Source of the DNA: Marsupella aquatica
Taxonomy: Eukaryota > Plantae > Marchantiophyta
Length of the DNA: 64,000 nucleotides
Direction: 5' to 3'
Assembly (NCBI GenBank): GCA_973895155.1
Contig: OZ316892.1
Span: 20,161,869-20,225,868 of the forward strand
Shown here: positions 1-47,014 of the stretch, in pieces
How the letters are laid out: every line of letters begins with the position of its first letter
Numbering within the stretch: position 1 is the stretch's first letter
The notes under the pieces: generated by a model
The model's input: only the letters and a program-made list of their open reading frames with translations
Database searches by the model: none
Told to the model about the DNA's origin: nothing
Program-made: the position numbers and the translations under genes

Positions 1-225
1 AGGTTCAGTTGATGCGACCAGTCGCGTCTAAGGTAGCTCTCTCATTGACTGGTTTTGTTAGAGGAGGTAAGGTTCCTTTTAGGACCAGTTGACGTGACTA
101 GTCGCGTCTGAGGTAGATCTCTCATTGACTGGTTCTGTTAGAGGAGGTAAGGTTTCATTTAGGATCAGTTGACGTGACCAGTCGCATCTGAGGTAGATCT
201 CTCATTGACTGGTTCTATTAGAGGA
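1..225. repeat. 80-bp tandem repeat, ~2.8 copies (truncated by window start); each unit carries the palindromic motif
   Basis: Units start at 1, 81 and 161 (aggwycagttga...); each contains tgaygygacyagtcgcrtct. Confidence 0.95.
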
Positions 226-364
226 CAAAGCAACATTTATGATTTGTCACGTTGTGACCCAAAAAAATCACAGTCTCAAAGAATTGTTTATACATTCTGA
301 TTAGTAGGCGCGACCAATCGCATAAAAATAATCTTTGGGATATATCATTTGGCTTAAAAGAGTC

Positions 365-916
365 ATGAGCAAACCTGGTCTAGAGAGCTTCAGATATCTA
401 TGCCTAATATTTGACGTTTTGGACAGAAGCCAAGATGGTCTACTGGCGGGATATTTTGTATTTGTTGAAATACTACTACCTGGACTTCCAAATTTCATTG
501 TCGCGGAATTGATATGGCCTCGGATCAAGGAGTCTTTTAATTCCTCGACTAATACAGGAAATTTCTCAATAAAGGAATTGGATGAGTTTGTAGGACTATC
601 TTCGGTGTGTCGCAGATGGCGCCACCTTGTTGGGAATACCTATGTTCTGGGTGTAATCAAGTTGAGTTTATTAGATTTGGCTTTCCCAGGAAATCCTACT
701 AAACCGATCGGAAATGAGTCTCTCTCATCGATAGTTCAAAGTTTCTTCCAGAAATACCCAAGAATTAAATTCATGGGGTCAATGTCCAGAGATCTTAGGG
801 AACTCTTCACGAAGACTTATGATGCTCTTCACCCTCTTGAAAAATGGAAATTTACAGTCAGATGCCACGAAGTTGGATACCTTGAGGGTGACATCTACAC
901 TTTTAAGGAATTCTAG
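365..916 (+). CDS. F-box-like protein 1
   Basis: LLPGLPNFIVAELIWP...LSSVCRRWRHLV matches the F-box start (LP) and end (VCrrW), with a longer spacer than usual. Confidence 0.6.
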   Translation: MSKPGLESFRYLCLIFDVLDRSQDGLLAGYFVFVEILLPGLPNFIVAELIWPRIKESFNSSTNTGNFSIKELDEFVGLSSVCRRWRHLVGNTYVLGVIKLSLLDLAFPGNPTKPIGNESLSSIVQSFFQKYPRIKFMGSMSRDLRELFTKTYDALHPLEKWKFTVRCHEVGYLEGDIYTFKEF

Positions 917-981
917 TTAACCTACGTGACCAAGCGCGTCGTATGTCTTCTAACAATGTTTTGTGATATGATAAAAGCAGG

Positions 982-1548
982 ATGAGCCAACTTTTGAATG
1001 AGGCTCGAGATTTCCTTTCATCTCATGAAAGGAAATAGAAAACAATATGGGATACGCTGGATGAAACCTCCTCTAGTCTCATTGGAGGAATACCAGATGT
1101 TTTGGTCATTTCAAACATTTGGCCAATACTCTACAAACACTTTATTTCAATTGAAGGATTGCGTAGATATTGACACCCCGATAACGATTTGGTTATCGAT
1201 AGGGTCTGAGACCTTATTCGGCTTGGAGCTTGTAGCAAGAAGTGGAACTTTTTAGTTACAAATACAAGGTTATGGGCTATCCTCAAACAAGCAAACCGGA
1301 TTGTCGATGACGCAAATGAAGCACTTTACTACATACCCAAAATTGACGAGTTGGAGTTTGACTCAGTCTGTCGAGTTATTCGATAGGGTATTTCTATGCT
1401 TCCAGAAATATATGTTCTTGGGACTACTACTTCTGACAAAATCGTATTATTTACGAACAAATATAACTATTTAGATGAGGAAGAACGAGATGTTCTACTC
1501 GAAAGGTTTGGTAGATTTTCTCAGAATCTAGGTGGTCCTAGTTCTTAA
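982..1548 (+). pseudogene. F-box-like protein 2 with in-frame stops
   Basis: Manual translation gives LIGGIPDVLVISNIWP...LGACSKKWNFLVTNTRLWA, paralogous to the 1583 ORF; three in-frame stops in the 5' part. Confidence 0.6.
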
Positions 1549-1582
1549 TGGATAGGTTCTTGTTCTTAATCTTTTCCATATT

Positions 1583-2113
1583 ATGTTGCAGTCCTTTGAT
1601 ATGAATCAAAAATCTCATCGTCAAATGATGATGGAGCGCATTGCACGTGCAAAGGTTATGAACCGAAACATGATATGGAGTCAAGCTAAAGACCTGATAC
1701 CCGGTCTTCCGGATGATATTGTCGAGAAATATATTTGGTCATTAGTCAAAGAGTTTTTCCACTGTCTTGGGAATTTGTCGGATAATGCGATTAAAAATCG
1801 GGTCATGGACTTGATCGCCATTCGAACAGTCAGTAAGAAGTGGTGCCACATAGTTACTTATAGTAGTACTTGGGCGAAGATCACCTTGGTAGCTTACGAC
1901 TTCACTGATAGACCAGGATATGAATCGCTTCGAAGGCATTTGACTTCACGGAGTGTAGCATTCAGATTTACAGAATCCATCAGAATTCTCCCGCCGTTGG
2001 ACATTATGGGTGGATTTGAAGGATCTAAACTTGACACGTTTAGGAACCTTTGGTTTTGGTTAGATGAAGATGAGCAAGAAGTTTGGGTCAGGATAAACGT
2101 TCCTAAAATGTAA
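1583..2113 (+). CDS. F-box-like protein 3
   Basis: LIPGLPDDIVEKYIW...IRTVSKKWCHIVTYSSTWA. Confidence 0.65.
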   Translation: MLQSFDMNQKSHRQMMMERIARAKVMNRNMIWSQAKDLIPGLPDDIVEKYIWSLVKEFFHCLGNLSDNAIKNRVMDLIAIRTVSKKWCHIVTYSSTWAKITLVAYDFTDRPGYESLRRHLTSRSVAFRFTESIRILPPLDIMGGFEGSKLDTFRNLWFWLDEDEQEVWVRINVPKM

Positions 2114-2188
2114 TTCGGCATGACGCGACCATGCGCGTGTTAGTATTTTATAATAAACGTTTAACTTTCAATATTTGTCTATTTCAGA

Positions 2189-4915
2189 ATGGATCCTACC
2201 GGAACTTCAAAGCGGAAAAGAGACTCATCTAAAGCTGCTTCTCGTAAGAAAGCCAAGACAAAAATGACTCCCGCGGAGACATCCATACTTGCATATCAAG
2301 GAAAGTCAATTAGAGAGAGAACAACGAAGACAAAGAGTATCCATCTCTTTGAATCGACTGAGATATCCGATTTTGGAATAGTCGTTCGCAATGGGGCTGT
2401 CCGTCTTGTGGTGGCAAAAAATGATAAAGCTACAATTTTGGAGAGATCACAAATTCTTGGGTGTTTCTTTGAGAAGAACATGAAAGTTAAAGAGTGTACA
2501 AAGGGATTGGTTCTGCTAGTCAGCGACGACCAGCAGGAGGACAAAACAAGCATTTGTTTGGATCGAACGCAATATGTAACCTTCAATCAGCCCAAAATCG
2601 ATGATCTTCTAGGTGCAAGGCATGCCTTGGAAAAGGTTACTAGTTTGAGAAGTGATGCTGCTTTTTAGTCCCTGTGAAGTGGGTTCAGTCGGAGGCCGAT
2701 AGAGATCCCGACTACAATGGGGTGCCCTACGATTCGGCGTCAAAGGAGGAGGACATTATGACCAGTCATTTTTGGATAGTCGAAGGCCAGCACACAATAA
2801 TGGCGTACAAATTGCTGAAAGAGGATGACAAAGTCAGCCAAGTTGTATGAGATGCTTGCGGTACTATAGAAGCTGTAATGTTTTGGGCAACGCTCAACAA
2901 CGACAATAATGTTCATTTGATGGGATTATCGAAAGCTCTGAACCACTGTCATCAAACATCAATGGAAGAAGGATAGTTTCTCACCATTGTACGATAGTGT
3001 CGTAATATCTGGAACTCATTTGGGTGGTCTGGATCACATTATCGTCATCCAAATTGGAAGGTATATAAATAACCCTCTTCGATCACATTATCGTTTAAAA
3101 TTTTGTCACGCGAACGGTCGCGTCAAGCTTAGAATTTTTCTCACGCGAACGGTCGCGTCAATCTTAGAATTGTCATGTTTCCATTGTTTTTCAGGTATTT
3201 ATGAGAGCTACGAGTTTTGTTTGCCCATGGGCTCAAATGGGGAAGAACGAAATGATGAAATTTGGAGAATTGGCTTCGTTTCTCTTTACGAAACATTCAA
3301 GAAGTGGATGGAGGTCTACAAACTATCAAGGACAGGAGAGCTTGTAATTTACAATGGAATTTTACACAGGGACGCCATCAAAATTGCGGATAATCCATCA
3401 TGTGCTTATCATCTTTTGAAGAAGACGTTCCGTTCTTGTCAAGGGTGCTCAAACTCGGTTCTTCGAAAGGTAGCGGAATATATTTTGAGCGGAAGACTGT
3501 CTATACTCAAAAACCGAAGCATCAAAGTGAAATCTGGGAAGGCAAGGAAGTCCTCTGAGGCTCCAGTGTTGTCAACGACCAGCATGAGTTTGGAGCAATT
3601 CTGTATAAAGAAGAAGACGAAAGTTGAGTTTGAGATTTTATTATTGAGTAAACTCAACGGGGATACATCCACCCGAACGGAGCTGAAAAGTCTGACAGAT
3701 TCAGCGCAGAAATTGCGGGTCAAAGAAATGATTGATCACTTTAAGCTCGACAAGATGGTGCTGAAGCAGTTGAGAGATGCGTTGAGTGGTTATCTGAAGA
3801 AGTGCTTAAATGTAAATATTAGTAATGATAATTTGTTGAAAGAGATCAACCTGATATTCTACAGGTTGGTGGAAGGAATACAGAAATCAGTTGATAGTCA
3901 AGGAAACCAACTAGTGCGGCCGGTCGGTGAGAGGCTGAAATTGCGATCCCTACAGGATATACAAAATGCTGGGTTTGCAGACTGTATCATACGTGAAGAC
4001 AAGAACCTTGCGAGCTTGATTTATTTTGATCCCTCATCAATGGGAGATTTACGTCCGCCAAATTGCTCATTCTATGAGGGGTTATTTTGTGCTACTAGCG
4101 AGATAGGGGCAAAACCACACCATGTGGTTATTATTGTAGCCTCTCCCGTTGAGTCTTACTTAATCAAATGGGAATTAGGGAAGTACACACACTATGTTGC
4201 TGTCGATAGCCATTATATTCAGAAGCGGCCAAAGGAGAAGAAGCTTATTGTAACCTATGCTTTTCACAGCTTGACCTTCAGCACAATGGGCGATCCACAA
4301 GCCCTCGAGTTCCAATTGGTCTCCAAATATCGGATTGAGAAGATAGCCAATTTTGAAGAGAGCGGCGAGTTCACGACACCTTCCCCATAAAAGATACTTC
4401 CATTCTTTTGAAAGTATTGTTAGTCAATTCGTCCAATGTGGGGAATGGGCTATATGCTTCGGTGAGGGAACGAACTTGATCCAGTGCTTAATGGTAAGTT
4501 TTAAGATTTATATTTTGGGGTTTTGATTTTAAGATTATTTAGATTATTATATTCTCAATTAATATTGTGAACTAATTTTGGCTTTTTTTACAGGATGCTG
4601 GATCCAATGTAAAATATTACTGCCCTGTGGCAACGCATAGGGAGTTGTCTTGTTTCTTGCAATACACCACGGCAACAATTGATACAACGTTGTCATTGAT
4701 TGACCCAGTACGGGCTAGTATAGAAAAATGTATAGATAAATTAATGAAGTACCGTCCATCCGTAATTGCTCTTAGGGCTGATATTTTGGATGTCCTCCAC
4801 AAACAACATATCCCTGATAATATTTGTAATCAATTATTGCAAGAGTATGCACTCTCTGAAGATTCCGATCGATTGTACATTCGACCAACGGAGTACCCTA
4901 GTGGGCCAATCCAAG
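2189..4915 (+). pseudogene. 5' part of a giant multi-exon gene: ParB/Srx-like region followed by a degenerate beta-class amino-methyltransferase-like region
   Basis: Predicted exons 2189-3060, 3195-4493 and 4594-4915 with GT-AG introns. Motifs: HFWIVEGQHT (~2766-2795), LIYFDPS (~4016-4036) and FVQCGEWAICFGEGT (~4428-4472). Contains frameshifts and stops. Confidence 0.45.
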
Positions 4916-5043
4916 GTAGGTTACTTTTGAAACCTCTTACTTTTTATTGCGTCACGCAAACATGCGCGTGGACATTCTTAACATTTCTTTTCACGCGAAT
5001 ATGCGCGTGAGTCATTCTTATCAAATGATCTGATTTTATTCAG

Positions 5044-6806
5044 ATCAAGTCGACTGCGGCTTCAATGTTGAGGATGCAGGGAGCAATGGTGATGCGGATG
5101 GTGAAGGTGAAGGTGACACGGAAGGTGACGCGGATGGGGATGTCAATGACCAAGATCCAGAGTGGATGACCGATACGCAGAACAACGTCGGAGATTCCGA
5201 CAATAGAGGAGATGAAGAGAGTGACGGAGAGGAGATGAAGGACGCTGAGGACACTGATGAAGAGGACGAGGAGATGGAGGGTTCTGAGGACATTGAGGAC
5301 TCTGATGAAGAGGCCACAAAGGAGCCTCGATATGAGGTGGACCGAGAGGAGGCGGCCCGGTAGGAGGAGGCTAGAGCGGAGGCGGCCCGGCAGGAGGAAG
5401 CCCGGCTGGAGGAGGCCCGGCAGGAGGCGGCCCGGTAAGAGGAGTTTCAAAAGAAGGAGGCGGCCCGGCAGGAGGAGGCCAGAGAGGAGGCGGTCTAGCA
5501 GGAGGAGGCCCGGCAGGAGGCGGCCCGGCAAGAGGAGCTTCAAAAGAAGAAGGCGTCCCGACAAGAGGCATCCCGACAAGAGGCATCCCAACAAGAGGCG
5601 GCCCGGCAAGAGGAGCTTCAAAAGAAGGAGACTAAGAAGAAAAAGGTGGTAGCTAGAAAAGCAACTACCGCGGAGAAGAAGGAGAAAGCCGAGGCTGAGA
5701 AAGCAGAGGCTGAGAAAGCTGAGGCTGAGAAAGCCGAGGCTGAGAAAGCCGAGGCTGAGAAAGCGGAGGCCGAGAAAGCGGAGGCTGAGAAAGCCCAGGC
5801 TGAGAAAGCGAAGGCAGAGGAAGCGGAGGCCGAGAAAGGGGAGGCCAAGAAAGTAGAGGCGGAGAAAATGGAGGCTGAGAAAGCAGAGGCGGAGAAAGCC
5901 CAGGCTGAGAAAGCCCAGGCTGAGAAAGAGGAGGCTGCGAGAGTCCTTTTAGTGACAGAGGCAAATCGGGCCAAGGCGGAGAGTGTGGCGGCTGAGAGGC
6001 TGCTGGCCGAGAGGATGGCGGACGAGACCGCAAGACCAGAGAGGGTGGAGGCGGAGAAGTTGGAGGCAAAAAAGGTCAATTCCGCAAGACTGGAGAGAGA
6101 AGAAGCCGCAAGACTGGAGGCAGCAAGGAAGGAGGCCAAGAGGGCCAAGGATCTTTCGCTTATTCCTGAGGCACAACGTCTACCAAAAATAAAGTTGAAT
6201 TTGAAGAAGCCTTCTTCACCCTCAGTTGCAGTTAAGAAGAAAATATTAGACTATTTTCTTCGCCCGGAGTTTGAATTTAACGATCCACCCTTAAGTACGG
6301 TCTTGTTGGATGATTGGAATAAATATTCACCGGAGCAGCTCTGAGTCCAAGCAGTCCTTGCTTTGCAATATTGGAAGGGTCTTTTGATTACCGAGGAGAA
6401 GACTGCCACTGCATCCAGAATGGAGACAATCATCAATAATGTTCGCTTTTCCGAGAATCGAGTGCAAGACCTGGGAACGTCTTTGGCACCAGACTCGGCT
6501 CAAGTCGTTAAGAAACTAACAGCTGACTTGATGCGACCGGGTTCGTGGTCTCAACCCCAAAATATTGCAGAGGTCACTCGCGCAGAAATTGTGGCACCGG
6601 ATATTTTGGAATCGGATTCCCAGATTGTGGAATATTTGAATCAAATGCCACAACCATTTGAAGGTCTTCCCGCCTCATCGCTCCAACCTTCGCAAATTGG
6701 TCTGGTGGAGCGATCACTGCGGTCTCGAGGAGGGCTGAAGGATGTTGTTGCGAAGGAGGCACCCAAGAGATCAGCTGTGAAAAGACCGGATCCACCCAAT
6801 CCAAAG
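5044..6806 (+). pseudogene. Acidic region plus coiled-coil repeat exon of the same gene (QEEAR and EAEKA pentapeptide repeats)
   Basis: ORFs 5166, 5646 and 6363 share one frame, broken by single stops. The splice acceptor at 5043 and donor at 6807 keep the phase. Confidence 0.6.
5345..5930 (+). repeat. Coding 15-bp minisatellites (gaggcggcccggcag-type, then gaggctgagaaagcn-type)
   Basis: Directly visible 15-bp periodicity. Confidence 0.9.
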
Positions 6807-6960
6807 GTCATTCGCAAGCTATAAGCTTAAAGTTTCTATTATAATAGATGTCATTATTTTATTATTGATTTGTTATTGTTTCTGTTTTCTGAGGTAGAAC
6901 CCTTAGGCTACAACCTCAGTACGTTATTTGAAGGCGTACTGAAATCTCTGTTTTTTGCAG

Positions 6961-7749
6961 TTTTTTGAAAATTTGGCTAGTCGAATAGATCAATGCCTTG
7001 ATCCTTCTAAGGATATGGAAGAGCTATTGACCAAGTTCTTACAACACTCGATCAAGAGGAAACATATGATGTGTCTGAGACCGCGCGAGTTGCTCACCGA
7101 TGATATAATTAACGCTTATTTGAGTTTTCTTGAACTAATTCTCGATAGAGTTGGAAAGTCAGACCTTGTCAAATTCTTCCAAACACACCATTTTGAGCTT
7201 CTCTCCATGGATCCTACCATTTTTGATGAGGAGAGAGCAGCTTGGACAAAGGAGTTTCCGCTAAAAATTAGTGAATACGACAAACTGGTCTTTCTAATAC
7301 ACAATGCTGTGAAAGAACATTGGTCATTGGTAGTTGTGTATCCGAAGGAGAAACGGCTTGAGTACCTAGATTCTCTAGTTCATAATCGACAAAATCCTGG
7401 GGTGCTAGATATTGTTGGGAAGTACTACGCCGACGAAATTGGCTGGAGAACTGGTGTCAACTTGGATCGCTCAGGTTGGGAACAGATATATTGGAATGAT
7501 ATTCCTCACCAGAGTGACGGCCACAATTATGGTGTGTTTATCTTGAGATACGCCAAGTGCTTGTGTCAAGGAAATGAAATTAATTTTTCCGCGGATCAAA
7601 TTGAGAAATTCCGTAGGGAGATAGTCTTGTCGTTATTTGACATGGACTTCCGCAAGCCGACGTCCGCAAGTAACCTAGTTATCGGGATCCGTGTTGCTAT
7701 GATTGACATTTCCGATGGAATTCCAGCACTGAACGACCGTCTTGTACAG
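6961..7749 (+). pseudogene. Ulp1/C48 SUMO-protease domain exon with the catalytic Cys replaced by Tyr
   Basis: LTDDIINAYL, HWSLVVV, YLDSL and IPHQSDGHNYGVF (canonical QxxxxDCG). Confidence 0.85.
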
Positions 7750-7833
7750 GTAATACACTTCATTTCAGTCTCTCTTTGTAGTCACGCGATCGTTCGCGTT
7801 ATAAACTTATTTTCAATTCTTAATGTTTTATAG

Positions 7834-8559
7834 AAGCCTATCCAGAAACCCCCTGATCGAGTATCGAAGGCACCAGTCCAGAAGTCTGGTGATCATCCGG
7901 AGGCGAGAAACAAACCGTTCTAGTACGTTCTCCAAACCCTGCGGCACAAAAATCACAGGTACAGACGGCGCCTAATCCATCGGCAAAGAAGTCACCGGTT
8001 TAGAAGAGACTTGTAATTTTCGATCTGAATCGGGTACTTATCTGGTCAGAGAAGATCAGCCCTGGGATGCCCATTCGGTCAAGGGGTGTGAGACATATGC
8101 ACAAGGTTATCTATCCAAGGCCTGATTTAATGGAATTTCTTGAGAAGGTGGCAGATCTATACGACATTGCGATCTGGTCGTGCATGTTCAAACGGAATAT
8201 TCTATCTTGTGTAAGGCTGATACTTCGACCCAAAGTTTTGAAACGTATTAAATTTATATGAGGACAAGAATCAACTCGACTTATTAGGAAGAATAATAAT
8301 GACATCCCCTTATTTGTCAAGTGTCTCTCCGACATAACCGCCGATATTAAAGATTACAACATCGAGAATGTCATTCTTATCGATGATGCTGCATATAAGA
8401 CGAGCCTTAATGACTTCTATTCATCGCTGTATCCCGATGCATATTTTGGGCTCGATGATGACCTATTTTTTAGAAAGAAACTATATCCATATCTATGCGA
8501 CATGTCAATTGACAAGTTGACAGTCCGTGAGCTCCTTAGTGGATATGGGATTCTAACGT
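7834..8559 (+). pseudogene. FCP1/NIF-like HAD phosphatase domain 1, interrupted by the Gypsy element and completed at 17364-17519
   Basis: KRLVIFDLNRVL, RPDLMEFL, IAIWS and NVILIDD. Removing the Gypsy plus one 4-bp TSD restores the frame (LT[F/V]SQENLEKDY). Confidence 0.75.
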
Positions 8560-9989
8560 TGTCGTGGGGATTCCTTTTAGAAGGCTAGAATCTATATTGT
8601 GTTATTTGAGTTTATGTGAAGAGGGTTTTACTTAAAAGCTTCATAGTAGTACTATTAGAGCATATATGTTACATTCTATATGTAGTGTGTACATTCTACA
8701 ATGGTACACAGTAGTTCCACCAATTACGCATAGTAGTTTCACCAACTACGCATAGTAGTTGCACCAATTACGTATAGTAGTTTCACCAACTACGCATAGT
8801 AGTTGCACCAATTACGCATAGTAGTTTCACCAACTACGCATAGTAGTTTCATCAATTACGCGTAATAATTCCACCAACTACGCACAGTAGTTCCACCAAC
8901 TATGAATAGTACTAGCACACTTATAGGTGCTTGATGCTTGCCACTTGGCTTCCATCCAAGGGTCAAGGCATCGATCCATGCCCTTTTGGAAAACACAAAG
9001 GGGCACTATAAATAAAGTGAAGAGGAGGACACTCTCCTCATTTGCATTGTTTGATCTATCGTGTTGGACTCGCAACACTATAAGGAACTCTTCCCCTCTT
9101 GTGCACATGTCTTATTTATTATTTACCTCCATGTTTGGGTACTAACTTGATTGTTAGTCTTAGAACTATTTTATGTTTTATGTTTATTAGTCTTGAGATC
9201 AATTTAGTGTGCTTGTAATGAATAATATGATAAATGGAGTACCTAGAGTTTATCCCCCACCTGCTGTGCCATTTGTCAATCCTTTCTTAATTAGAATTCA
9301 TTGTCTTAGCAAGCATACCATGAGAATGCATCTTCTTTATCATTTTGAGTTTGAGTTAATGGAAACAGTTATGAATAGCGATGCACCATTTGTATACCCG
9401 ATTGTTGTTTATGGAAATGAATGGAATGTAACTATTTTTATTTTATATTAGATGGATTTTAATAGACAATCCGTAAATGTACCGGAGTTAGATTTGAATA
9501 GGCTTCCTAATAATGTGTCTGATTTTCCTTCATCTATTGACATTAGAGTGGTATGCCCTAAGAAGTTTGATTGTAGAGATGTTTTAGTTAGAAAGTATGG
9601 AGATGAAAGATACAATGTTATGTTTAGGATGCCAGAACCTGTGATTATATCATCTATGGTAAATCTTAAGATCATAGTCTTTATTTTCTATAATTGACTT
9701 ATCTAATTGTAGGATTCGTTGAAAATTGCAATCTATGACTTGACTTGGGAAGTAAGTTATGTGGAAAGAGGATAGGCCGATTCGAGGCTTAGTGTGAGGA
9801 AGCCGCTCATCGTAGAGTGGGACAAAGGCTGTGAGAGATATTTTAGAGGATAACGGTGAGAGAAATTGATCGACAAAGGGGATTGCAAGGGTAATGTGAG
9901 GTGAGAAAAGGCGTATTTTGGAAAGGTTTCTTCCAAGATAGGAAAAACAAGAGCTCGGTGCTTCCCAAGAACTGAAGATTCCCCCAACA
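8560..9989 (+). repeat. Gypsy 5' LTR (1430 bp)
   Basis: tgtcgtgggga...cccccaaca; matches 15820-17359. Confidence 0.95.
8708..8900. repeat. 22-bp tandem array inside the 5' LTR
   Basis: Unit tagtagtttcaccaactacgca. Confidence 0.9.
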
Positions 9990-9993
9990 TAAG

Positions 9994-10011
9994 TGGCGAC
10001 CATACTGGGGA
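9994..10011 (+). other. Primer-binding site (probably tRNA-Arg type)
   Basis: TGGCGACCATACTGGGGA, 4 nt after the LTR end. Confidence 0.7.
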
Positions 10012-10156
10012 ACTCTTGGGGCCTATTTTTGGAAGAAAAAAGGAAGTATTGCATTACTAGAAGAGGCTAACTTGCTTTACTAGACAATTGGTCTAGGGAC
10101 ACCTAGGTGGTGGGCGCCTATTCATTGCGAGAGAGTAAACAAGTTGATATATAGCA

Positions 10157-12217
10157 ATGCCTAACAGTACTGACATAGGAGACTCAAGTATGTCCCCCAA
10201 CACTATGGACATGGATACCATGTCTAGAATGTTGTTAACTTTGATGCAGAGTATGAAACAAACCGATACAACAAAAAATCAAAAGAGAGAGCAAGCACAT
10301 TGTGCAACAAGATGCTTGAGGAAGGTTCTTGAGAAGAATGGGCAATTTGATGGTCGTAATGTAACTCGTTACATGAAGACCTATTGGCAAGAGGCTACTA
10401 TTGAGCAACTTTCAGAAGAGGTTGCAATTCGTCAATTTTCAACATTGGCGGAGCCAGAATTAAAAGGGATCGTTGATGCTATAGTTCTTGAGGCATCAAA
10501 AGACAAGACATGGAGGTGTTTTGAGAAATGCATGAAGGAGAAATTCCAATTGGAGGATGCTGATCGAATTACACAAGTGACATTTTGTGATTGGGTCCAT
10601 GAGAGGAACAAGAAATTGGGGCCACAAGAACTATTGCGAGAGTTCAACAAGAAGTTCAATCAACTTCTAGATTCAGAGGCACAAGTCATCCGGATGCAGA
10701 GGTGTATTCTATTTCTTAGAGCTGTAGATGAGAAGCTAAGGGATGAGTTGGAGAATGCTTTGGATCTAATTGATCCAGATCGTACTGACTCTTCTACAAA
10801 TTGGGAGAACATTGAGAAGGCAGTGATGAAGGTAAGTCATCGACATAGAAGAAGAGACTTGGATCAAGAAGCTATCAGTGGAGTTCCAAGTCAAACCAAG
10901 ACATCAATCACTACAAGGATGGGTAATACTACTAGTGGGGGTGAGAAGAAGGAGATCAAGTCCACAGCACAAGAAGGCAAAGGAGGAGCAGTTGAAGAGC
11001 TTACTAATTTGATGAGGAACTTGACCATTCTTACAACCCAAGTTCTAAACCAGACGCAAGCAACCAAGACTACAACAACAACAAATCGCACATGGAATTG
11101 CATGTGGTGTGACAGCAAGGAGCATAGAAGAAATGATTGCACTGAACTTTCTGCAGCACTTCAAAATCGACTTGTGAAGTTTGTTGGTGAGCAAGGACAA
11201 AAGAAGCTTGCATACTACAACACTGAGGAACTTATACCACTCAACAATAATCGTGGAGGAATGAGAGCCTTAGTGGAGAAAAAGTTGGCAACAGAAGGAG
11301 TAGACACAGCAACAACTGTAATCGAGCCTAACGTTTTTGCTGCAACAAGTTGTTTTTCAGAAAAGGTACTTGATGAGACAGGAAAGAAAAAGCTTGCTGA
11401 CTACATTCGTCAACAAACTAGATGGGATGCTCCTGTGTTAATAGCCCCAATTACTGCAGAAGTTGGAGCTACATGGGAAGCAAGAGTGGAGGACAAGCGC
11501 AAAACTCCTTCAAGTGATGAGCCAAGAGGAAAGATGCCAAGAAGAGAAACTTCAGATTCACCAATGGAGGAAGAGAAGAAGAATGAGAAGTCAACCAAAA
11601 AGGGACCTGGGTGGATACTAGGCCGTGATGTGGAACAAACAATTGAACCAGAGAGAATTGCTGATAAGTTTTGAAAGCAAGAAGCCCGTGGTTTTACAAA
11701 TGAGGAGTTATTTGGGAGTTTGAGGAAAGACATACAAGAAGCAATTCTTACAAGATCAAAGAAGAAACGTTTTTACAAAGAGGGTCCTCATGCTCTAGCT
11801 GGGGAGATGAAGGATTCAGATAATGAAGGAGAAACTAAGAGCGTGAGCATTTGTGCAGTACAAGTTGAAGACAACAAAGTTGAGGTAGATTCCTATCATG
11901 CTAAATCTATAAAAGAAATGGAGTCATATTGGGCAAGAGCTTGTGATGAAGTTGAGGTGGAGCTGATTGGAGTCAAAGGTCCTATCAAGGCACTTATTGA
12001 TTCAGGATCAGAGGTGAATCTAATGTCAAGGGAGCTCTACAACCAAGGAAGGTGGAAGGTGGATCGAGACATCCAATGGAAGGTGAAATCAGTGAATGCA
12101 AATCACAATTCTTTGTGGGGAGCTTGTCCTGATGTGAAGCTTAAGGTAGGAAATGTGCTTGAAGACATCAATGTCTTTGTTCATGATTCCTTACCTTATC
12201 CACTTCTTCTAGGATAA
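10157..12217 (+). pseudogene. gag: Gag with zinc knuckle, followed by aspartic protease
   Basis: CMWCDSKEHRRNDC (CX2CX4HX4C), premature TGA at 11672-11674, and ALIDSGSEVN protease motif. Confidence 0.9.
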
Positions 12218-12635
12218 CCTTTCATTACAGAATGGAGACTAGAGACTAAGGTTCTTGATGATGGCACTCATATGGCCAAAGTCAAGAGTAAGGATAATCT
12301 TTGTGTTATCCAATTTCCAACAGTTCGCCCGGATCATGTGAGAAATAGGAAGGAGCTGAGAGCAAGTGAAGAGATGAAGGACCAAGAAAATTTCTGATTG
12401 GCATCCCGTTAATGAGGGTGAGCAGGCAGGATGCCAATGTGAGTGACTCACCAAACATAAGATTTTCCTCGTCTTCGTTTGTAGCTATAGGGAGAGATAG
12501 AGAGGTTTCATATATGCAAGTTAGAGAGGCATCAAGAAAATTGAAAAAGAGAATTGAAAGAAGTAAGGCTATGTTAGTTAGTCAAGGTGTTATGGATTTA
12601 AGTGATAACATAGAGGGTGTGCTAGATGAACAAGG

Positions 12636-15600
12636 TTGTTGTCGACTTTGCAGCAAGTTATAGTAGATTTGAATGATGGAAAGGGTGAGATAGAAGTAGG
12701 CCCATTGCTATATCAGCATATAGAAGAGTTGGTTGAGGTGAACACAAAGTACAAGACAATAGATAAGAAGGTTAGACCAGCAGCCACACCTCTACCAGCT
12801 GATGCAAGAGATATTTTAAGAAGTGCTAGCAAGGAGCCTAGTTTGAGAGATAAAAGAAAAATTGGACATACATTCACAGAAGATACTTTGAACCAATTGC
12901 AAATTGGTGATGATGGACTACTTACCATGATCGATAAGGAGGCATTCAAAAAGATGATCAAAGAGCATGGGAGGGCATTTTCCTTTTCTATGGAGGAGAT
13001 AGGATGTGTGGATCCACAGAAGGTAACACCAATGGTTATTTTTACAGTTCCACACATACCATCGGATTTGAAGCCAATTTCAGTTCCAAGAGCACTAACA
13101 CCAAAGTTGATAGCATTGTTGAAAGAGAAGTTAGATGCTAAGATACTTGAGAGATCAGATGCACCATACTCCAATCGGTGGTTCACAGTGCAGAGAAGAA
13201 TGGGAAGCTACGTTTCATTCAAGACATGCAGCCACCAAACAAAGTCACAATTCGGAATGTTGGAGTTGGACCTGTGGTAGATGAGTATGCTGAAGACTTT
13301 GCTGGGAGGGCCATCTATTCCATTGGAGACTTGTACTCAGGGTATGATCAATTCCAACTTTCTCAAAGTAGTAGGGATATCACCACCATGAGAACTCCAC
13401 TTGGACTTTTGCGTATGTGCACCTTGCCACAAGGTGCTACTAATTCTGTTGCACATATGCAAAATGCTATGAACAAGATTTTGGAGTCTTTCATTCCACA
13501 TAAAACTAGACCATTCCTTGATGATATGCCAATCAAAGGATGTTTGGAAGAACTCAAGGATGAGACACTTCGAAAGGATGGGATACGTCAATTTGTTTGG
13601 GAACACATGAAGGATGTAGGGGCTATACTAAAGAAGTTGATTGAGGTGGGAGTTACACTCTCAGGAGAAAAATCAGCATTTGGCTTGAGAGAAGTCAAAG
13701 TGGTTGGGCAGATGTGTGGGCCCTATGGAAGAAAGCCAAGTAAGGAGAAGGTGGAAGCAATCAGCCAAATGGAGGATTGTCAAACAACTTCAGAGGTACG
13801 AAGGTTTCTAGGAGGTTGTATCTTCTACAGAATATGGATATCACATTTTTCACATGTTTCACATCCATTATATGGCTTGCTTAAGAAGAATGTAAGATTT
13901 ATATGGAAAAGTGAACATGTAGAAGCAATGCAGCACTTGAAAGAAGCTTTGTTAAGTCCACCTGTGCTTCGCCCATTGAAGTATGATGGTGTACATCCAA
14001 TAGTTCTTACAATAGATGCAAGTCCATATGGAGCAAGATGGGCATTGGGACAAGATGATGATGATGGGCATAGAACAGCTGCTCGTTTTGGAGCAAAGAT
14101 CTTTAACGAAAGACAACAGAAGTATCCGCATATAAAGAGAGAGCTTTGGGGAGCAAAACTAGCACTTAGGCAAGAGAGAAATTACTTGATAGGAGCTAAC
14201 ATGATTCTAGAAACTAATTGCTTACCCTTACTTGGGATGATTATAAACTGTGATACTCCCAACATTGCTATGCTTAGGTGGATAGCTTTTATCCGAATGT
14301 TTAATCCAGAACTGAAGCACATAATTGGAAAAGATAATCCAGTGGCTAATATGTTGTCAAGAGCTAGATATAAATCAGGGAAGCATAGTATTGAGTGTTC
14401 ACATGGTGAGATTGAGGGACAAATTAAGGGGTTGTTATTCTATGAAGATCTATATTCAGGAGAGTTGCTAATTATAGGACGTTATTTGAGTACATTGGAG
14501 AGAGACACTAGATGGAGTGATGAAGAATTCAGCAAGATTCGAAAGAAGGCTTACAAGTTCTTGGTTCGAGATGGATACTTATGGAGGCGTCCAAAGGCAA
14601 GGAGTCAAGTACCTCTGAGAGTGCTTGATACTGAGGGAGAGAAAGTTCAAGTATTACAAGAGGCACATGATCTTGAAGCAGCAGGGCATCGTGGAGTTCA
14701 CGCTACATATGAAAAGTTAAGAAGATTCTACCGGTGGGCTGGAATGTATATGGATGTTCGAGAATATGTTGGATCTTGTGAGATTTGCCAATACTACTCA
14801 AAGATTCAACATAGAGATGGCTTGAACCCTACACATCCTCTATCTTTACATTTTCAATGGGGTATAGATATCGTTCATATGCCACCAGGGATTAGAGGTG
14901 CAAAATATTTAGTGTTAGCTAGAGAAGACTTGTCTTCGTATGTGGAAGGGAGGACATTATCTTCTAACAAGATTGAAGTCGTATGCAGGTTTGTGTTAGA
15001 AGATATCATTGCTAGACATGGATGTTTTAGGCGCATGAGAGCTGACCGTGGAGAGTTAGATAGCAAAGAGGCAAAGGCATTCTTCAAGAAATTTCATATC
15101 CGCTTAAAGCTAAATACATCTTACAATCCAGAAGCAAACGGCAAGAGTGAGAGAGGTCATCCACCAATTGTTAATGCCTTAGTCAAATCATGCAAGGGAA
15201 AGGCATCAAGATGGCCAGACTTACTACCTTTAGCTCTATTAGCAGATAGAATAACTTGTAGTTCAGTGACAGGATATGCACCGGCAAAATTAGTAAGTGG
15301 GCATCTACCTTTAATGCCATTAGAGAAGAATGTTTTTAGTTGACTGGGAAGATCAGATATCACATGAAGAGCTACTTGCAAGGAGGATGGAACATTTCCA
15401 AACAACTCCAGAAAAGATTGACATTGCAATGGAGAAAGTGAAGCAAGCACGAGAGAAGAATAAGGTCAGATTTGATAAGACTCATCGATTGAGACCTATT
15501 CAAATCAAAGAAGGAGATTGGGTTCTTATTGCAGAAGGAGGGTTGGAGCAACAACATTCGACAAAAGCTAAGTTTATGAGAAGATGAAGAGGGCCATTTG

Positions 15601-15761
15601 TGGTTGTTACTATTCACCCAAATGCAACATACACAGTTCGAGAGTTAGATGGAGCAATTCATCAAGTTCCTTATGCAGGCAAGAGGGTTAAGCTTTTCAA
15701 ACAACGTTTGAAATTTCATTTACAAGATGTGTATGATTTGAGTGATGTAGAGGACTTTTGA
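12636..15761 (+). pseudogene. pol: Pol: RT, RNase H and integrase, with frameshifts at ~13190 and ~15335
   Basis: DLYSGYDQF, LPQG, FLDD, DASPYG, HHCC, GIDI/RADRG/NGKSE and a GPF motif. Confidence 0.95.
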
Positions 15762-15819
15762 AGCTGGGTCATAAGGTTGGTGTAGACCGGAGGCTGCACA
15801 GGTTTAGTGGGGGGTGATA

Positions 15820-17359: not shown

Positions 17360-17670
17360 ACGGTCTCTCAAGAAAATCTTGAGAAAGATTATATTGATAA
17401 GACGAATCTTTGGAGGAGAAATGTGATCATTCGTAATCACGGGAATAAAGACCATTTAGAAAAGTTTGACGAATTTATGAAATACTTATCTGCCGAAAAA
17501 GACCGTGCTATAAAAGCCCGGGATAAGTCCAATAAGTAAACGTTTATTGTTTATTATCAATTATTATTTATAAATTGATTAAAATTGAACTTTATATTTT
17601 GGGAGTGACGCGCCTGGTCACGTGGTTGTTTGCAATTGCATAATATGAGAATCAAATTGTTCATTTACAG

Positions 17671-17999
17671 GTGTCTAAGTGGAGTAGGTTGCGTCAACTT
17701 CTAGTTTTAGGACTGGAAAACTTCCTGTGCTCTGTTTCAAAATATACTCCTCAGCTCAAGTTGACACCCGGAATGCGTATCGGATCTCTATGTGTCGTTC
17801 CGAGGCCGCATCTTCATGATCTTATAAAATTATGTTATGATCATTTTGATGTGATGGTCTGGTCTATTCTCGACGATAAACTGGTTTATCAGATACTTTC
17901 AGAAGTGTTGTCGAGCACCGACCTGTCGCAGCTGATATATGTGTTCACGCGGGATCATTGCTGGAATCTTGGTTATGTGAAGAAAAATTATAAGACTGT
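17671..17999 (+). pseudogene. FCP1-like domain 2, N-terminal half (C-terminal half at 43917-44292, minus strand)
   Basis: LLVLGLENFL, PRPHLHDLI, VMVWS and HCWNLGYVKKNYKT; cut at the CACTA TIR. Confidence 0.7.
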
Positions 18000-22560: not shown

Positions 22561-22717
22561 TCCTACTGGACCACAAAAACATGTCATCTATGGTCACCCC
22601 GTATAACACAATGCAACCACAATCACCAGGCATCCATCCATACATCTGTGTTGCTTCAGAATTACTTTATTACACATCCTTCCCCTCACTAATGTCCATG
22701 CAAACAATTCACATTAC

Positions 22718-27761: not shown

Positions 27762-28347
27762 ACACTCTACGTGATGACAGTGAATTTTGGAAGAATGGGT
27801 TCACCTGACAATACAAGGACAACAAAATTCCTGCTTTTTGAGTTGATCTGGCCCACTGGTGCTCAGGTCCGATTTTGATAGGTACAAGGGATATGTGAAC
27901 AATACGTACTAGGCACCTGCACGGATGCAGGACATTGTTTGAATATATACTACAAAATCCATATCCGTGGTGAAATGAAGTGCAACCAACTTGTCATGGC
28001 ACATACATATTTTGTTGTAAAGGAGGATACATTCAATGACAAACTTATAGGGCAATTTGATTAATTGCATGCCTGATAATTTATACGCTTACAACTTAGA
28101 AGTCCTGTTTTAATTTAGCAGTCTGATGAAAGTGTTTATGAAAATGACCACTCAGCCTAAATACTTCCAAGAAGGCTTGTAAGGATAAGTTTGTATAGGC
28201 ATGTACCCAGCCACTGACGCCAGAGCACAAGATAAGTGCTGCCTATATAAACTCGCCTACCCAACTCCTTTTCAAAATTGGAATCTCTGCAATCTCAAAA
28301 AATAGTACATCCACATCAGGTGCACTGTGCATGTACAATGTTCAGCT

Positions 28348-29028
28348 TCACAGCCAAGATATGTGATCTCTCACAGGAGTGCGCGAGGTAGGATCAATGG
28401 TATGGCGATGACAATAAAATATCCATCGATCAACACCATGTGCAGAGTGATCATAGATTTCTCTGTCACAAGCATAACCCTCTGCTTGATGATCTTTCAG
28501 GCAATGATAGTGCCACATAGTGGGACACCTAGCACAGTGGACTATGTCAGTCCAGTAGTCATCATCATGCTCACCACATGCCTTGCACCTATGAAGTGGG
28601 CAAGCTGTGGCATGAGCAGGCAAACACTCAAAACAGAAAAATCTCACACAAAAATGGTCTGGACATTTCCTAACATTTGCTGCAGCATCAACAGAGCCCT
28701 CATAGGACCCCAACTTCCCACACTGTGCACACTTAGCCTGCTTCTCCAAACAATCAGTGCACATCCAGTCTCCCTGGTGTGTTGACGGGAGGCCCACCCC
28801 TGGACAGTTGTTTTCTGCAGCAAGGTCAGACTCCGGGTTGAGGTGGAAATGCCTCATGCAAGGGCCCTCACAAATGACCAGGCCCCCACCATCGTCACAA
28901 ATGGCACAACAATGAGCTGCCTTCTGGAAAATCTGACTTGCAGAGAAGTTAGTAGCATCTGCCCCAAGTACACCTGTGTTTCTCACCTCTGTCACACGCT
29001 TTTTGGCTTGAATTTTAGGCCGTGCCAT
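28348..29028 (-). CDS. EDM2/NSD-type composite PHD-finger protein
   Basis: CAICDDGGGLVICEGPCMRHFH...WMCTDC...CAQCGKLGS...CPLHRCKAC...CARCPTMWHYHCL; open ATG-to-stop ORF. Confidence 0.8.
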   Translation of the reverse strand: MARPKIQAKKRVTEVRNTGVLGADATNFSASQIFQKAAHCCAICDDGGGLVICEGPCMRHFHLNPESDLAAENNCPGVGLPSTHQGDWMCTDCLEKQAKCAQCGKLGSYEGSVDAAANVRKCPDHFCVRFFCFECLPAHATACPLHRCKACGEHDDDYWTDIVHCARCPTMWHYHCLKDHQAEGYACDREIYDHSAHGVDRWIFYCHRHTIDPTSRTPVRDHISWL

Positions 29029-29726
29029 GCCTGCGCATGAGATAGACTCTACAATTTAGCAGACTGCACAGAAAGTAAAATATATTTAGCATTTAAGGTA
29101 CAAAGGCATTTGCTACTGCAATGAATTGGAATGGCCACACAAGGATGCAGAGCACACATACTTTTGGTATGTTGAGCCCACACACAAAACTGATCCCCTA
29201 ATACAATTTCTCCACCAACACCTCAATTTTAATTGTGGCTATGATTCACCAAAGGAGATCTGCAACAACATTTCATGCATTTGAATCACATACAATAGTC
29301 GTGACATGTAAAACAGGCATTCTTCGAAGAGGATTGGTATGAAGCAGTGTCATAAGGGTTGAAATTTATACATCCTAAATAGGTTATGATAGTGGCTGAG
29401 ACAAATAAGTGAGGCATAAATCATTTTGCATATTATCACATGGCCCATTAATTCATTCAACGTTGCAATGTTCACCAGGTTAAAGCAGTCATGAAAGCAG
29501 TCTTTCAATAGAGACTTTTATGCGAGTTTGCTAGCCTCTTAAATTAGGATATTTTGCTTAGTGCAGGCATAATAGGATATAAGTTATGTACTGTTGACCC
29601 TAAACCCTGGACCCAAAATTGCTCATACATCAAAATTTTAAGTAAATATCCTCTGTGTTGAAGTCAGAGTGTTAAGCTATAGGTCAATGGTATCTGGTCT
29701 GTGCATGCGGTGTGACAAGTGGTCCT

Positions 29727-40480: not shown

Positions 40481-40875
40481 TTTTCCATGCACGTGGAAGC
40501 AAATTTCTGGTGGATTCCAATCTATTGGCCGACGTATCATCGGCGAAGGATAAAGTTCTTAGACGTGGAAAATTTGGTGTACGCATCGGCACCTGACATG
40601 CGCCTTCTGAGGTCCTGCAGACAATGTGTATTGTAGAGTCACGGACAGAAACGAGTGCTTGCATACAAATTAACACCTTGTGGAACCTTTGGGAAAAGCA
40701 TTGGCACCCGACATGCACCTTCTGAGGTCCAGCAGAAAATGTGCATTGTAGCACTCAAAGACAGAAACGCGTGCTGGTTTACCTTTAATTTGGCTAATTT
40801 TGGCCACTAAAATAACCGTGGAATAGGGGTCAGACTAGCCAGAGCAGCCTATACACAGAGTACAAGAAACGTTTT

Positions 40876-41197
40876 CTTTTTGCCTTGAAAACCGAAAGCA
40901 GGCCCATCCAACAGAGGATAGACGTCCTGCTTTGGAGCATGCATTTCTATGTAGGGCAGCCACAACGGGACAATACCCGGGGATCCGACAAGGACCCAAA
41001 CCAGGAGGGAGAGAGGATTAAACCAGAACCCAAAGTGGGCAACCAGGGCTGAGGAGATAATCAATACTCCCACCACTACACCCCACCCACACACACACAC
41101 ATACCCTCCACACCCCTTATGTGTGGAGGGAGGATTGAACCTGGGACCTCTCGGTTCTAGGCTCATCCTCTGGCCAACTGACCAAAGCCAGTTAGTT
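40876..41197 (-). mobile_element. tRNA-derived SINE (322 bp) with 15-bp TSD
   Basis: TSD tacaagaaacgtttt at 40861-40875 and 41198-41212; A-box-like tggtcagttgg, B-box ggttcaatcc and A-rich tail; empty site in the paralogous copy at ~50826-50841. Confidence 0.88.
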
Positions 41198-41841
41198 TAC
41201 AAGAAACGTTTTTGTACAACTGCCAGCCTACTGAAAGTGTGGGGCACAAAAATCCATCATACTATTGACAGTGTACAGGACTCGGCCTAGACTGCCGAAA
41301 AAGAGCCAATACACCCAACCAATAATTTACTTTCTCTGTTTCTTTTAGAACTACTTGTTGACGACCATGTGCTTGCTCACAGGAACTTCTAGGAAGCTGC
41401 ATTTAGGTCTCGGTTGCTCATGTCGGTTGACTTATGACCCATGTTGGGGCAGCCGTGTTTCCTTTTAAACAAATGCCATCCAACAAATACCTTAACATCA
41501 CAGTCAGTGGCTAGAACAAATCACAACTGAATCGCTTTGTTGGTGTCAACAGTCGGGACACGGTAGACCATATAACAATTATGGGGTGACGGAGAGAGAT
41601 CAGGGTCCCAGTATAGTGGCTTAATTTGCGTCATCTCCCTTCTTGAGTGATCGGATCGGGGATTGGATTCAAAATTATTTTGGGATGCATAATTACTGCA
41701 AATAGTTATCTACATACAGTCTGTAGAGGTTTCCGAGGTACCGGTAAATGATTCCTCACTACTGACGTCGAGGATCTGGTGTTTTGCTATTACTCCTGTG
41801 CGAATCAACGTGTTCATCTAGAGGAAGGTATTATTAACTTA

Positions 41842-42800
41842 CTAGCTCAATACCCGTGCGTTGCACAAAAAAAGTCAAATCGGCCATTAAAAAAATGTCA
41901 TTTCAGAGGTCGTTGAGAGAAAATATGTCATATCGGCCAACAGGTCGTGGAGAGAAAAGATGTCGTGTCAGCCAAGAGGTCGTTGAGAAAAAATGTGTCG
42001 TGTCGGCCAAGAAGTCGTTTGAGAAAAAAGATGTCATGTCGGCCAAGATGTCGTCAAGAAAAAAATTGTCAGGTCGGCCAAGATGTCATTGAGAAAAAGA
42101 TGTTGTGTTGGCAAAGATGTCATTGAGAGAAAAGATGTTGTGTCAGCCAAGACATTGTTGAGGGAAAATACCTGTGCATTGCACAAAAGATGTCGTGTTG
42201 CTCAAGATGTTGTTATGTGAAAGATGTCATGAAATAAAAAGATGTTGAACATTAAGTAAAAAGAAGTAATTTTGCCAAAGATGCCATTATGTGAAAGATG
42301 GTGATAAGAAAAAGGTGTCATTTTGCCAAAGATATCGTGAAGTAAAAGATGTTATAAGAAAAAAGATGTCGTTTCACCCAAGTTGTCGTTATGGGAAAGA
42401 TGTTATGAAGTAAAAAGTCAAGGAGATCGAGAAGGAGCAAGTCTTTTTCTTTGTTTTGTTTTTCACCCAAAATACCCTTGCATTTGATTTACTAAAAGAT
42501 ATTGTTTGTGAAAAGATGTCAATGCATAACAGATGAGGTTGTGCTAAAGATGTAGTTGAGAAAAATTACCATGTTGCTAAAGATAGCTTGAGTAAAAGAT
42601 TTTGTTTGTTAGAAAGATCTCAATTGATGCATAAAAGATGTTGTTGAGTAAAAGATATCATGACTCAAAAGAGAGGCCACATCAACCACCAAAGTACAAC
42701 ACAGTGACAATGATTTTTCTCTTTGTTTTTGTCATTTTTTCCTTTCAAAACTCAACAAACCACCCCCCCTTTGGTTCCCTCTGTTTGATTACTTTTTGGT
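41842..42800 (-). mobile_element. Non-autonomous Helitron-like element (3' end)
   Basis: Minus-strand gtgcaacgcac hairpin followed by ...gagCTAG|T at 41842; internal aagatgtcgt short repeats. Confidence 0.6.
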
Positions 42801-43101
42801 CTCTTTTTCTCTCATTGATTAGATTATGCCCTACAACCCCAATTTAAGGAAAACCGAACTTTGGAAATTCCAAAAATCACTAAATATTATTATTTTAATA
42901 AAAGGGGGCGACATGACGCGTGGCTGCGCGTGAAACTCTGAAAATGACTGCAACGTCACATTTTAACCAATCCAACTTGACGGGACCAAGAGACATGCTC
43001 ACGCGAATAATAATAATAGAGAAATAAATCTTTGAGATCCTTTATATATGATAACCAGTATATAAGGAGTTTACAAATGGTTTCTAGAACGACAATACAA
43101 A

Positions 43102-43850
43102 TTAATCTGATCTCATGCCGACTATTATTTTGGAAGCGTCCAAAATTGGACGTCTGTTAAATTGCTCTACTAGATATCTATCTCCATGCCTCTGAATCAC
43201 AGGGTCTTCCCATAGAGTATGATTATAATCATAATCTCTAAAAATAGATTTAACTGACCAATCAGGATAATCTCTTCCATTGGCAATGACAAGTGGCTCA
43301 CAAGAGTTTGCTAGCTTGCTAAGATACGGAATCAACAAGTTAATCAAGAAACTGTCGTCGACCGACCCAAAATATTTGGGCAGAAATAATGATCCAACAA
43401 CAAGATCTAAACAAGCATGAAATGCATCGGATTTGATAAGCATTATATTTTGCTGCAGATACGCCTTCGTATAAATTCCAACCTTCTCAAAACACTTCAA
43501 AAATATCCACTTATTTGATGTTATCCCATCGCATAAGTAACAATGAGACTGATCCCAAATATACTTAAATGAGGCCATTTCCATTGCAGTAAAAATAGAT
43601 GCTAAAATCTGATCTAAAAGGTTCTTCCCAAGAGAGGACCAGATCTCTACATCGAAATTCTCAAAATAGAATCTCAAGAATTTGTGAAGATGAGGCCTTG
43701 GAAAAACGTATATATTCCCAATCCGAATTCTAGTTGAGACCGCCATCAGTCAGGAATGCAGTGCAGTGTAACAGAGTACATGCTCCACATCTAAAACTAT
43801 GAGCCCATTTTCTCTACTGCAATGAATCTCTTGTAGAGAAACACAAGAAG
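43102..43850 (-). pseudogene. FCP1-like domain 3 with one in-frame stop at 43750
   Basis: LIVLDVEHVL, PRPHLHKFL, VEIWSS and DDSFLINLLIPYL. Confidence 0.7.
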
Positions 43851-43916
43851 ATGCATGAGCCCGTATGGATGTAGTCACGCGAATGGTCGCGTCACATATT
43901 ACAGAGACAACATCCT

Positions 43917-46970: not shown

Positions 46971-47014
46971 GAAAGCGATGGCCTAAAGCCGATGTGACAC
47001 GCTCATACGTTGAC

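Follow-up and report, generated by a model that had tools for sequence, protein, structure and literature searches.

According to Petroll et al. (bioRxiv 10.1101/2025.02.11.637652), VANC alone among transposon proteins has been shown to bind its own element and to demethylate it. In the VANC/VANDAL system of Arabidopsis, a family-specific motif occupies intronic, intergenic and terminal non-coding DNA and is gained and lost via tandem repeats (PMC5735166, PMC10398659). In algae, the giant DNA transposon Sola1-1_Ec32 of Ectocarpus encodes a ParB-like and N4C/N6A methyltransferase accessory protein, and its authors propose that proteins of this kind bind the transposon that encodes them and modify it; they note similar proteins in both green and red algae (PMC12477816). 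The Plavaka elements of the red alga Bostrychia carry a ParB-like gene with inverted repeats nearby and predicted self-binding, and an N6-adenine methylase in the same cassette (PAG2/PAG3; bioRxiv 10.1101/2025.02.11.637652). Fusions of the ParB-N6_N4_Mtase type are known from phages, with box II GxxR as a described motif (bioRxiv 10.1101/2025.10.10.680097), and retrotransposons with adenine methyltransferases and other eukaryotic amino-methyltransferases are more distant. Here we analyzed a 64-kb stretch of the liverwort Marsupella aquatica (contig OZ316892.1, positions 20,161,869 to 20,225,868; "the window"), which contains a mobile element with 14 copies of a CG-rich palindrome and a gene for a ParB-like/methyltransferase-fold protein. 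Algal transposons have already been reported to carry accessory genes of the ParB-methyltransferase type, as well as ParB genes with inverted repeats next to them, and the element described here is a land-plant counterpart of this proposed kind. We put at about 50% the reading that the palindrome is the likely docking site of a dimer of this protein, which would recognise the copies of its own element and likely help to keep them active.

The Marsupella element has the same ParB-like/methyltransferase domain pair as Sola1-1_Ec32, a likeness at the level of domain description. It differs in being likely a land-plant element, in having lost the catalytic motif of the methyltransferase, and in carrying in addition a Ulp1 domain, three NIF domains and F-box genes; it also has a defined element-wide palindrome, whereas the accessible Sola1 text describes no target site (PMC12477816). 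In Bostrychia, PAG3 combines ParB with a 2-oxoglutarate (2OG) oxygenase and PAG2 a methylase with a SET domain, with tandem arrays beside PAG3; in contrast, a single gene here encodes both the ParB-like and the methyltransferase fold, and the sites are distributed over introns and gaps. Like VANC/VANDAL, the element shows, within the window, a family-specific motif concentrated in non-coding DNA and in tandem repeats, and its layout may work as that system does, by analogy and not by established membership. VANC motifs are, however, 8-9 bp long, non-palindromic and arranged in one-orientation arrays (PMC5735166), whereas the site described here is a 20-bp palindrome with a different candidate binder, and loss of methylation has been demonstrated for VANC, while an indirect CpG signal stands in its place here. 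The domain order and the dimer-type palindromic site resemble those of the phage fusions and of ParB-parS; no ParA partner was seen among the open reading frames (ORFs) scanned, the box II Arg is replaced and the gene has predicted spliceosomal introns, unlike phage and bacterial ParB. A CG-rich palindrome of 20 bp is itself unlike bacterial parS. Our literature search, which covered mostly non-subscription papers, found neither a case from land plants nor a defined target site; the Bostrychia and Ectocarpus supplements may describe repeats.

To define the palindrome, the window was scanned with TSACGCG-N6-CGCGTSA allowing at most 2 mismatches, and the result was compared with 100 shuffles. 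There were 11 matches (at 10, 90, 2121, 3106, 3141, 4952, 4991, 7782, 17606, 42914 and 43875) against 0.17 +/- 0.40 expected. Three looser copies, at 170 (3 mismatches) and at 306 and 922 (4 mismatches each, by inspection), bring the total to 14, and a half-site is present at 42999. In a matrix scan, 922 and 306 ranked 13th (16.4 bits) and 14th (15.0 bits), with the next best sequence in the window at 8.8 bits, a ranking that is partly circular because the matrix was derived from the same sites. The only other matches with 3 mismatches, at 5126 in an exon of the element and at 28992 in a CACTA element, were supported by the matrix in neither case, and spacers of 5 or 7 in place of 6 gave zero matches below 3 mismatches in the window. 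No match with at most 2 mismatches occurred in the 53,205 bases of the window outside the gene region of the element. Hence the re-scan agrees with the sequence-only reading from which we started on all coordinates, on the half-site and on the absence of the motif from the Gypsy, CACTA and nucleotide-binding leucine-rich repeat (NLR) sequences, an element specificity that applies to a single 64-kb window. One claim of that reading had to be replaced: the 6-bp spacer does not vary freely. Among the 28 half-sites, positions 8, 9 and 10 are A in 21, C or A in 24 and C or T in 26, respectively, so that the middle is constrained too and the extended consensus is a degenerate 20-bp palindrome, TSACGCGAMY-RKTCGCGTSA. 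Eight of the 9 core mismatches are CpG transitions. At position 175, other copies of the element have a C that completes the CG core (12991/12991 depth in run X2, 7360/8205 in run X3 and 1708/1937 in run X4).

The palindromes of the window belong to one element only, which starts left of the window. Its parts, with the insertion nested in it, are as follows.

1..225, plus strand: 80-bp tandem repeat, 2.8 units visible because the window edge truncates it; each unit has one palindrome (10, 90 and 170)
306..325, unstranded: degenerate palindrome ahead of the first F-box ORF, 4 mismatches (matrix scan)
332..916, plus strand: F-box-like ORF 1, 5' end uncertain (Pfam F-box E 0.018, short of the cut-off)
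922..941, unstranded: degenerate palindrome directly after the stop of ORF 1 (matrix scan)
982..1548, plus strand: F-box-like ORF 2, stop-interrupted (Pfam F-box-like E 0.0044, short of the cut-off)
1598..2113, plus strand: F-box-like ORF 3 (Pfam F-box E 0.0029, short of the cut-off)
2121..2140, unstranded: palindrome in the gap ahead of the main gene (consensus scan)
2189..3060, plus strand: main gene, exon 1, with a PH-like N-terminal region and the second half of the ParB-like region (tblastn of the intact relative P0021)
3061..3195, plus strand: predicted intron with palindromes 3106 and 3141 in a 35-bp tandem duplication
3196..4915, plus strand: exons 2-3, helical region followed at about 3930-4700 by an amino-methyltransferase fold of the beta class, its catalytic motif degenerate
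4916..5043, plus strand: predicted intron with palindromes 4952 and 4991
5044..6824, plus strand: exon with an acidic tract and a coiled coil of 15-bp repeats
6961..7749, plus strand: Ulp1 / Peptidase_C48 domain (Pfam E 9.6e-16)
7750..7833, plus strand: predicted intron with palindrome 7782
7834..8559, plus strand: NIF (HAD) domain 1, its end interrupted by the Gypsy insertion (Pfam E 1e-11)
8560-17359: nested Gypsy insertion (pair of long terminal repeats, LTRs)
17540..17670, plus strand: predicted intron or gap with palindrome 17606
17671..17999, plus strand: NIF domain 2, first half, cut by the CACTA end at 18000 (Pfam E 5.5e-07)
40493..42700, minus strand: likely right terminal region, arrayed repeats of about 17 bp whose core is different, followed by unique DNA; no palindrome
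42914..43005, unstranded: palindrome 42914 and half-site 42999, past the last stop
43102..43816, minus strand: NIF domain 3 (Pfam E 1.6e-12)
43817..43901, minus strand: probable intron with palindrome 43875 (GTAATA donor, TTGCAG acceptor, matching phase)
43902..44295, minus strand: NIF domain 2, second half, in the inverted right part of the element

The right part of this element lies inverted between 44295 and about 40493. The contigs of X2 and X3 depart from the window sequence behind 44295, and in X2 the sequence past this point equals the reverse of 17967-17996 in 30/30 letters, with TGT duplicated at both breaks; the NIF halves at 17671..17999 and 43902..44295 are complementary in alignment. 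Because the contigs of other copies join 17,996 to 44,295, the far palindromes (42.9-43.9 kb) belong to the same element. The inversion probably arose via aberrant CACTA transposition: the flanks of the CACTA ends at 18000 and 36076 do not match, and the TGT duplication ties 17999 to 44295. An additional CACTA-like end lies at 33141.

All 14 palindrome copies lie within predicted non-coding intervals of this element. Nine of 12 such intervals hold a palindrome, and the remaining 3, like the 2.2-kb terminal region, do not. The copies form 10 independent clusters, all within the 15% of positions predicted non-coding, for which 0.15^10 = 6e-9, a figure that depends on introns predicted from splice consensus and reading frame, not RNA, and on intervals drawn by the analyst. 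The claim that copies occur only in introns, gaps and the 80-bp repeat thus stands for the predicted intervals, with the reservation that palindrome 43875 also sits inside an open frame. Palindromes are found within 80-bp and 35-bp tandem units, one of the latter being omitted in contigs of some other copies, and the summed contig depth of the 80-bp repeat is about 10 times that of the element body in X2 and X3 and about 4 times in X4. In the gap before Ulp1 (6880-6940), which is palindrome-free, there are two other short inverted repeats, one having a word in common with the 80-bp repeat.

A palindrome may also work as an RNA or single-stranded DNA hairpin in splicing or 3' end formation. The 3 copies tested all fold as hairpins (z -2.2 to -3.8), and in 6 cases a predicted 3' splice site follows 32-47 bases downstream of the copy; however, any palindrome folds, and short introns force the splice-site distance. 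The degenerate positions decided the matter. Among the 11 non-tandem copies they are paired between the halves in 23/55 cases, against 22.7 +/- 3.4 with halves shuffled, and position 2 is paired in 3/11; the sequence is conserved and the pairing is not. Because pairing is at chance level, each half follows the consensus independently, and a double-stranded site of fixed length for a two-fold symmetric protein or dimer therefore fits, as had been proposed, whereas a hairpin does not. With no covariation between the halves we rejected the hairpin, which we regard as highly improbable. Next to negligible is the possibility that each palindrome was left by a very small mobile or intron-generating element of separate identity, such as a miniature inverted-repeat transposable element with its own target-site duplications. 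Although most copies are intronic, no direct repeat of 2-9 bases abuts the palindrome at any of 11 copies, their flanks are unrelated (29-31% identical), and the palindrome lies inside introns rather than at their edges and also in gene gaps; this explanation was rejected on the lack of a duplication and on the unrelated flanks.

Two explanations name a different binder. The first, which we hold to be unlikely, is that the palindromes bind the transposase of the element, encoded outside the window, in self-regulation or end pairing, with the ParB-like gene as unrelated cargo. FHY3/FAR1 proteins are transposase-derived and bind CACGCGC (PMC6000157), all 4 matches to this site in the window lie inside palindrome copies, and one palindrome array is within the upstream tandem repeat. 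Set against this, 10/14 copies lack an exact CACGCGC, and the palindromes occupy introns and gaps and are absent from the 2.2-kb terminal region, which has a repeat family of its own. Terminal regions are the more usual place for transposase sites. The second explanation, quite unlikely in our view, is that the palindromes are host transcription-factor elements collected for expression in some cell type. Their CGCG core resembles the plant CGCG-box. It also resembles the FHY3/FAR1 site (PMC6000157), and 2 copies lie 40-50 bases upstream of start codons. The majority of copies, however, are in internal introns or after stop codons, a fixed 20-bp symmetric site exceeds the length of such host sites, and neither the host NLR gene region nor the other repeats of the window have a palindrome.

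The repeats of the terminal region form a second motif family, arrays of about 17 bp with the core AAGATGT/ACATCTT at 41881-42700 and 49591-50200. These arrays occupy the inner edge of that region, hold 17 and 8 exact cores, respectively, every one on the same strand, and are candidate transposase sites. More copies of the right terminal region without genes were observed at 49600-51729 and 48545-48764, and the right end of the element was placed where two terminal copies diverge. A Helitron-type end was rejected as unsupported: about 30 bases inward of the right end that the two copies share there is a hairpin (z -3.4 and -0.2, respectively, in the two), but CTRR does not follow it. The insert at about 40876-41210 resembles a short interspersed nuclear element, in that it contains a word similar to a B-box and has a duplication of 13-15 bases, and is absent from the second terminal copy.

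We then turned to the product of the main gene. Exon 2 (398 codons) matches no Pfam family, but the structural model of its relative P0001 (54% identical, predicted local distance difference test (pLDDT) 78) has a permuted Rossmann fold of the beta class. For residues 246-452 the structural matches are N6A/N4C DNA methyltransferases of this class, with M.MboIIA first (Z 13.2, root-mean-square deviation 3.4, 171 aligned); the top 20 VIA rows are all of this class (Z 13.2 to 7.8), Foldseek retrieved CcrM at E 5.7e-05, and viral methyltransferases in BFVD match as well. PDB sequence searches gave nothing useful, and an Atlas search with exon 2 gave nothing above 0.82. The sequence-only reading of a ParB-like/MTase-like product is thus borne out for the methyltransferase-like half, while the ParB half has sub-threshold profile matches only (Pfam ParBc_2 E 0.015; phrog_1033 E 0.027 in the window and 0.17 in P0020, profile 12-99). 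The Calypogeia protein P0004, annotated as one protein, runs from the last portion of the ParB-like part into the beginning of the methyltransferase region, and supports the fusion because it spans the exon 1-2 junction.

If the methyltransferase were active with an unusual motif, the palindromes could be its substrates or loading sites in a self-marking with N4-methylcytosine (4mC) or N6-methyladenine. The fold matches do include the N4C enzymes PvuII (Z 10.9) and rotifer N4CMT (Z 10.5), and a Marchantia beta-class enzyme puts 4mC on CG sites. The catalytic motif IV, which we take to lie after the first strand by its position, keeps its first Asp in 8/9 sequences. The following positions vary freely, and (D/N/S)PP(Y/F/W) is present in 0/9 sequences covering the position, the window reading DPSS. 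The S-adenosylmethionine-binding loop of motif I (FxGxG) appears reduced to F-[GS]-[EK]-G in 6/6 relatives (FGEG in the window). An active enzyme therefore appears very unlikely. In the Ulp1 domain, the His and Asp of the His-Asp-Cys triad are present and the window copy has Tyr at the Cys position, where the contigs of three runs have a Cys codon. FCP1/SCP-type NIF phosphatases have the catalytic motif DxDxT/V, which none of the three NIF domains keeps (DLNRV, GLENF and DVEHV).

Taken together, the palindrome is probably a site for some element-encoded protein, and its binding by the ParB-like/methyltransferase-fold protein is slightly favoured over the opposite. One subunit would read each 10-bp half-site, and the methyltransferase fold, its catalytic motif lost, may act as a DNA-binding or base-covering module. 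The bound protein would mark family copies as self, and the Ulp1 protease, NIF pseudo-phosphatases and F-box proteins, whether fused to it or encoded alongside, could alter host chromatin proteins at the bound element, as in VANC/VANDAL. That anti-silencing is the purpose of the palindrome system is a tentative proposal, for which the base composition of the element is of interest. Its coding CpG observed/expected ratio (o/e) is 0.81 (bootstrap 0.74-0.89, sites masked), despite the decay of the window copy, compared with 0.29 in the Gypsy, 0.32 in the CACTA, 0.58 in the reverse transcriptase element and 0.54 in the NLR gene. Because the value is about 0.3 in the Gypsy and CACTA elements, the family appears to have escaped long-term CpG erosion; the high coding CpG fits anti-silencing, and other explanations exist. 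Rather unlikely, in our judgement, is the most specific version, a second and independently evolved land-plant anti-silencing system. Here a dead phage-type ParB-methyltransferase fusion would load on the palindromes, spread or bridge, and bring the SUMO protease and pseudo-phosphatases, and the lack of CpG depletion would follow because the element is kept free of 5-methylcytosine.

Several observations weigh against docking by the ParB-like/methyltransferase-fold protein and against anti-silencing. The transposase is the obvious rival binder and is not in the window. The ParB-like part has a model pLDDT of about 30, which makes the model unusable, and P0021, with intact exon 1, has no ParB profile match. 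Box II (GxxR) reads GQHT in 3/3 sequences, Thr replacing the conserved Arg. The best Atlas language-model neighbours of intact exon 1 are fungal DUF3723 proteins (score 0.93, only 149 shared features). DUF3723 (PF12520), of unknown function, is, like the ParB-like gene, mobile-element cargo, in its case of fungal Starships (PMC9156397), and this likeness is a lead only, since exon-1 sequences have no Pfam match to DUF3723 and the shared-feature count is under the usual same-family level. The non-coding DNA around the palindromes has a CpG o/e of 0.49 (19 CpGs), so CpG retention is not focused on the sites, and 8/56 palindrome CpGs have decayed to TG or CA, which indicates that the palindromes were methylated in the window copy. 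Finally, the high coding CpG could result from recent arrival out of a host without CG methylation. With respect to the fold of exon 1, Foldseek returned nothing at E 0.001 with a model that is poor outside residues 44-170; VIA gave only PH-type folds (Z <=5.9, a weak lead), and ParB folds, not among its rows, are not thereby excluded.

The window copy is dead through deletion, stops, nested insertions and inversion, and was methylated afterwards. About 130 codons are gone from exon 1 at 2642-2644 (tblastn with P0021; loose contig ends at 2642 and 2644), a frameshift lies near 4406, and exons 2-3 contain a further predicted intron (4494-4593) without a palindrome. Its differences from other copies are mainly those that cytosine deamination gives and occur in all contexts (16 CG, 18 CHG and 13 CHH among the 47 listed of many more). 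The element is multi-copy. Contigs covering both of its parts were present in four runs with three organism labels from three studies, and summed depth over the element in X2, X3 and X4 reached thousands, similar in both parts, whereas single diverged contigs stayed in the tens to low hundreds; summed contig depth is no copy number, and X5 contributes a small share at low depth. Word-indexed protein searches with exon 2 found no relatives, and the full HMMER scan of 1.84 billion proteins alone found them, 17 in number, all 4 named ones from the liverwort Calypogeia fissa, as is the exon-1 relative P0020; these relatives by themselves point to a liverwort or a similar plant as the likely host. 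No relatives were found in viral contigs, metagenome contigs or phage records, and a giant-virus origin has no support from these searches.

Algal ParB-type accessory genes of transposons have been proposed to act like VANC with no defined target, and the element described here gives a precise candidate pair: a site of 20 bp, and a protein of which intact relatives exist. The pair comes from a lineage near the tractable model Marchantia and makes the proposal directly testable. If true, it would add a sequence-specific tool to work on plant epigenomes and would show that chromatin conflict in land plants has made new use of bacterial ParB-methyltransferase fusions.

Among the element ORFs scanned there was no Mutator-type transposase or VANC-family Pfam match, no ParA-like ORF, and no SET or 2OG-oxygenase match, the domain after the ParB-like part being the methyltransferase fold; the left part of the element is outside the window, and no separate search was made with the model's helical region. 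The window gave no Rfam or tRNA matches. The F-box-like ORFs and the main gene (917-2188) are separated by only 49-75 bases, each start codon following a 3' splice-site-like tract, and they possibly share one promoter and an alternatively spliced leader. In the neighbouring elements, the LTRs of the Gypsy insertion (8560-17359) contain a 22-bp tandem array of 9 versus 14 units and have very low CWG (o/e 0.27), and the CACTA element encodes, upstream of its transposase, BRCT and NSD-type PHD-finger ORFs (26886-29055, minus strand). A non-LTR reverse transcriptase (44299-48418), which we take to resemble CRE, is preceded by a 197-bp tandem array with a CpG o/e of 1.56, and the NB-ARC gene at 53270-58065 has a long ARM-repeat array (132-bp period) replacing the leucine-rich repeats.

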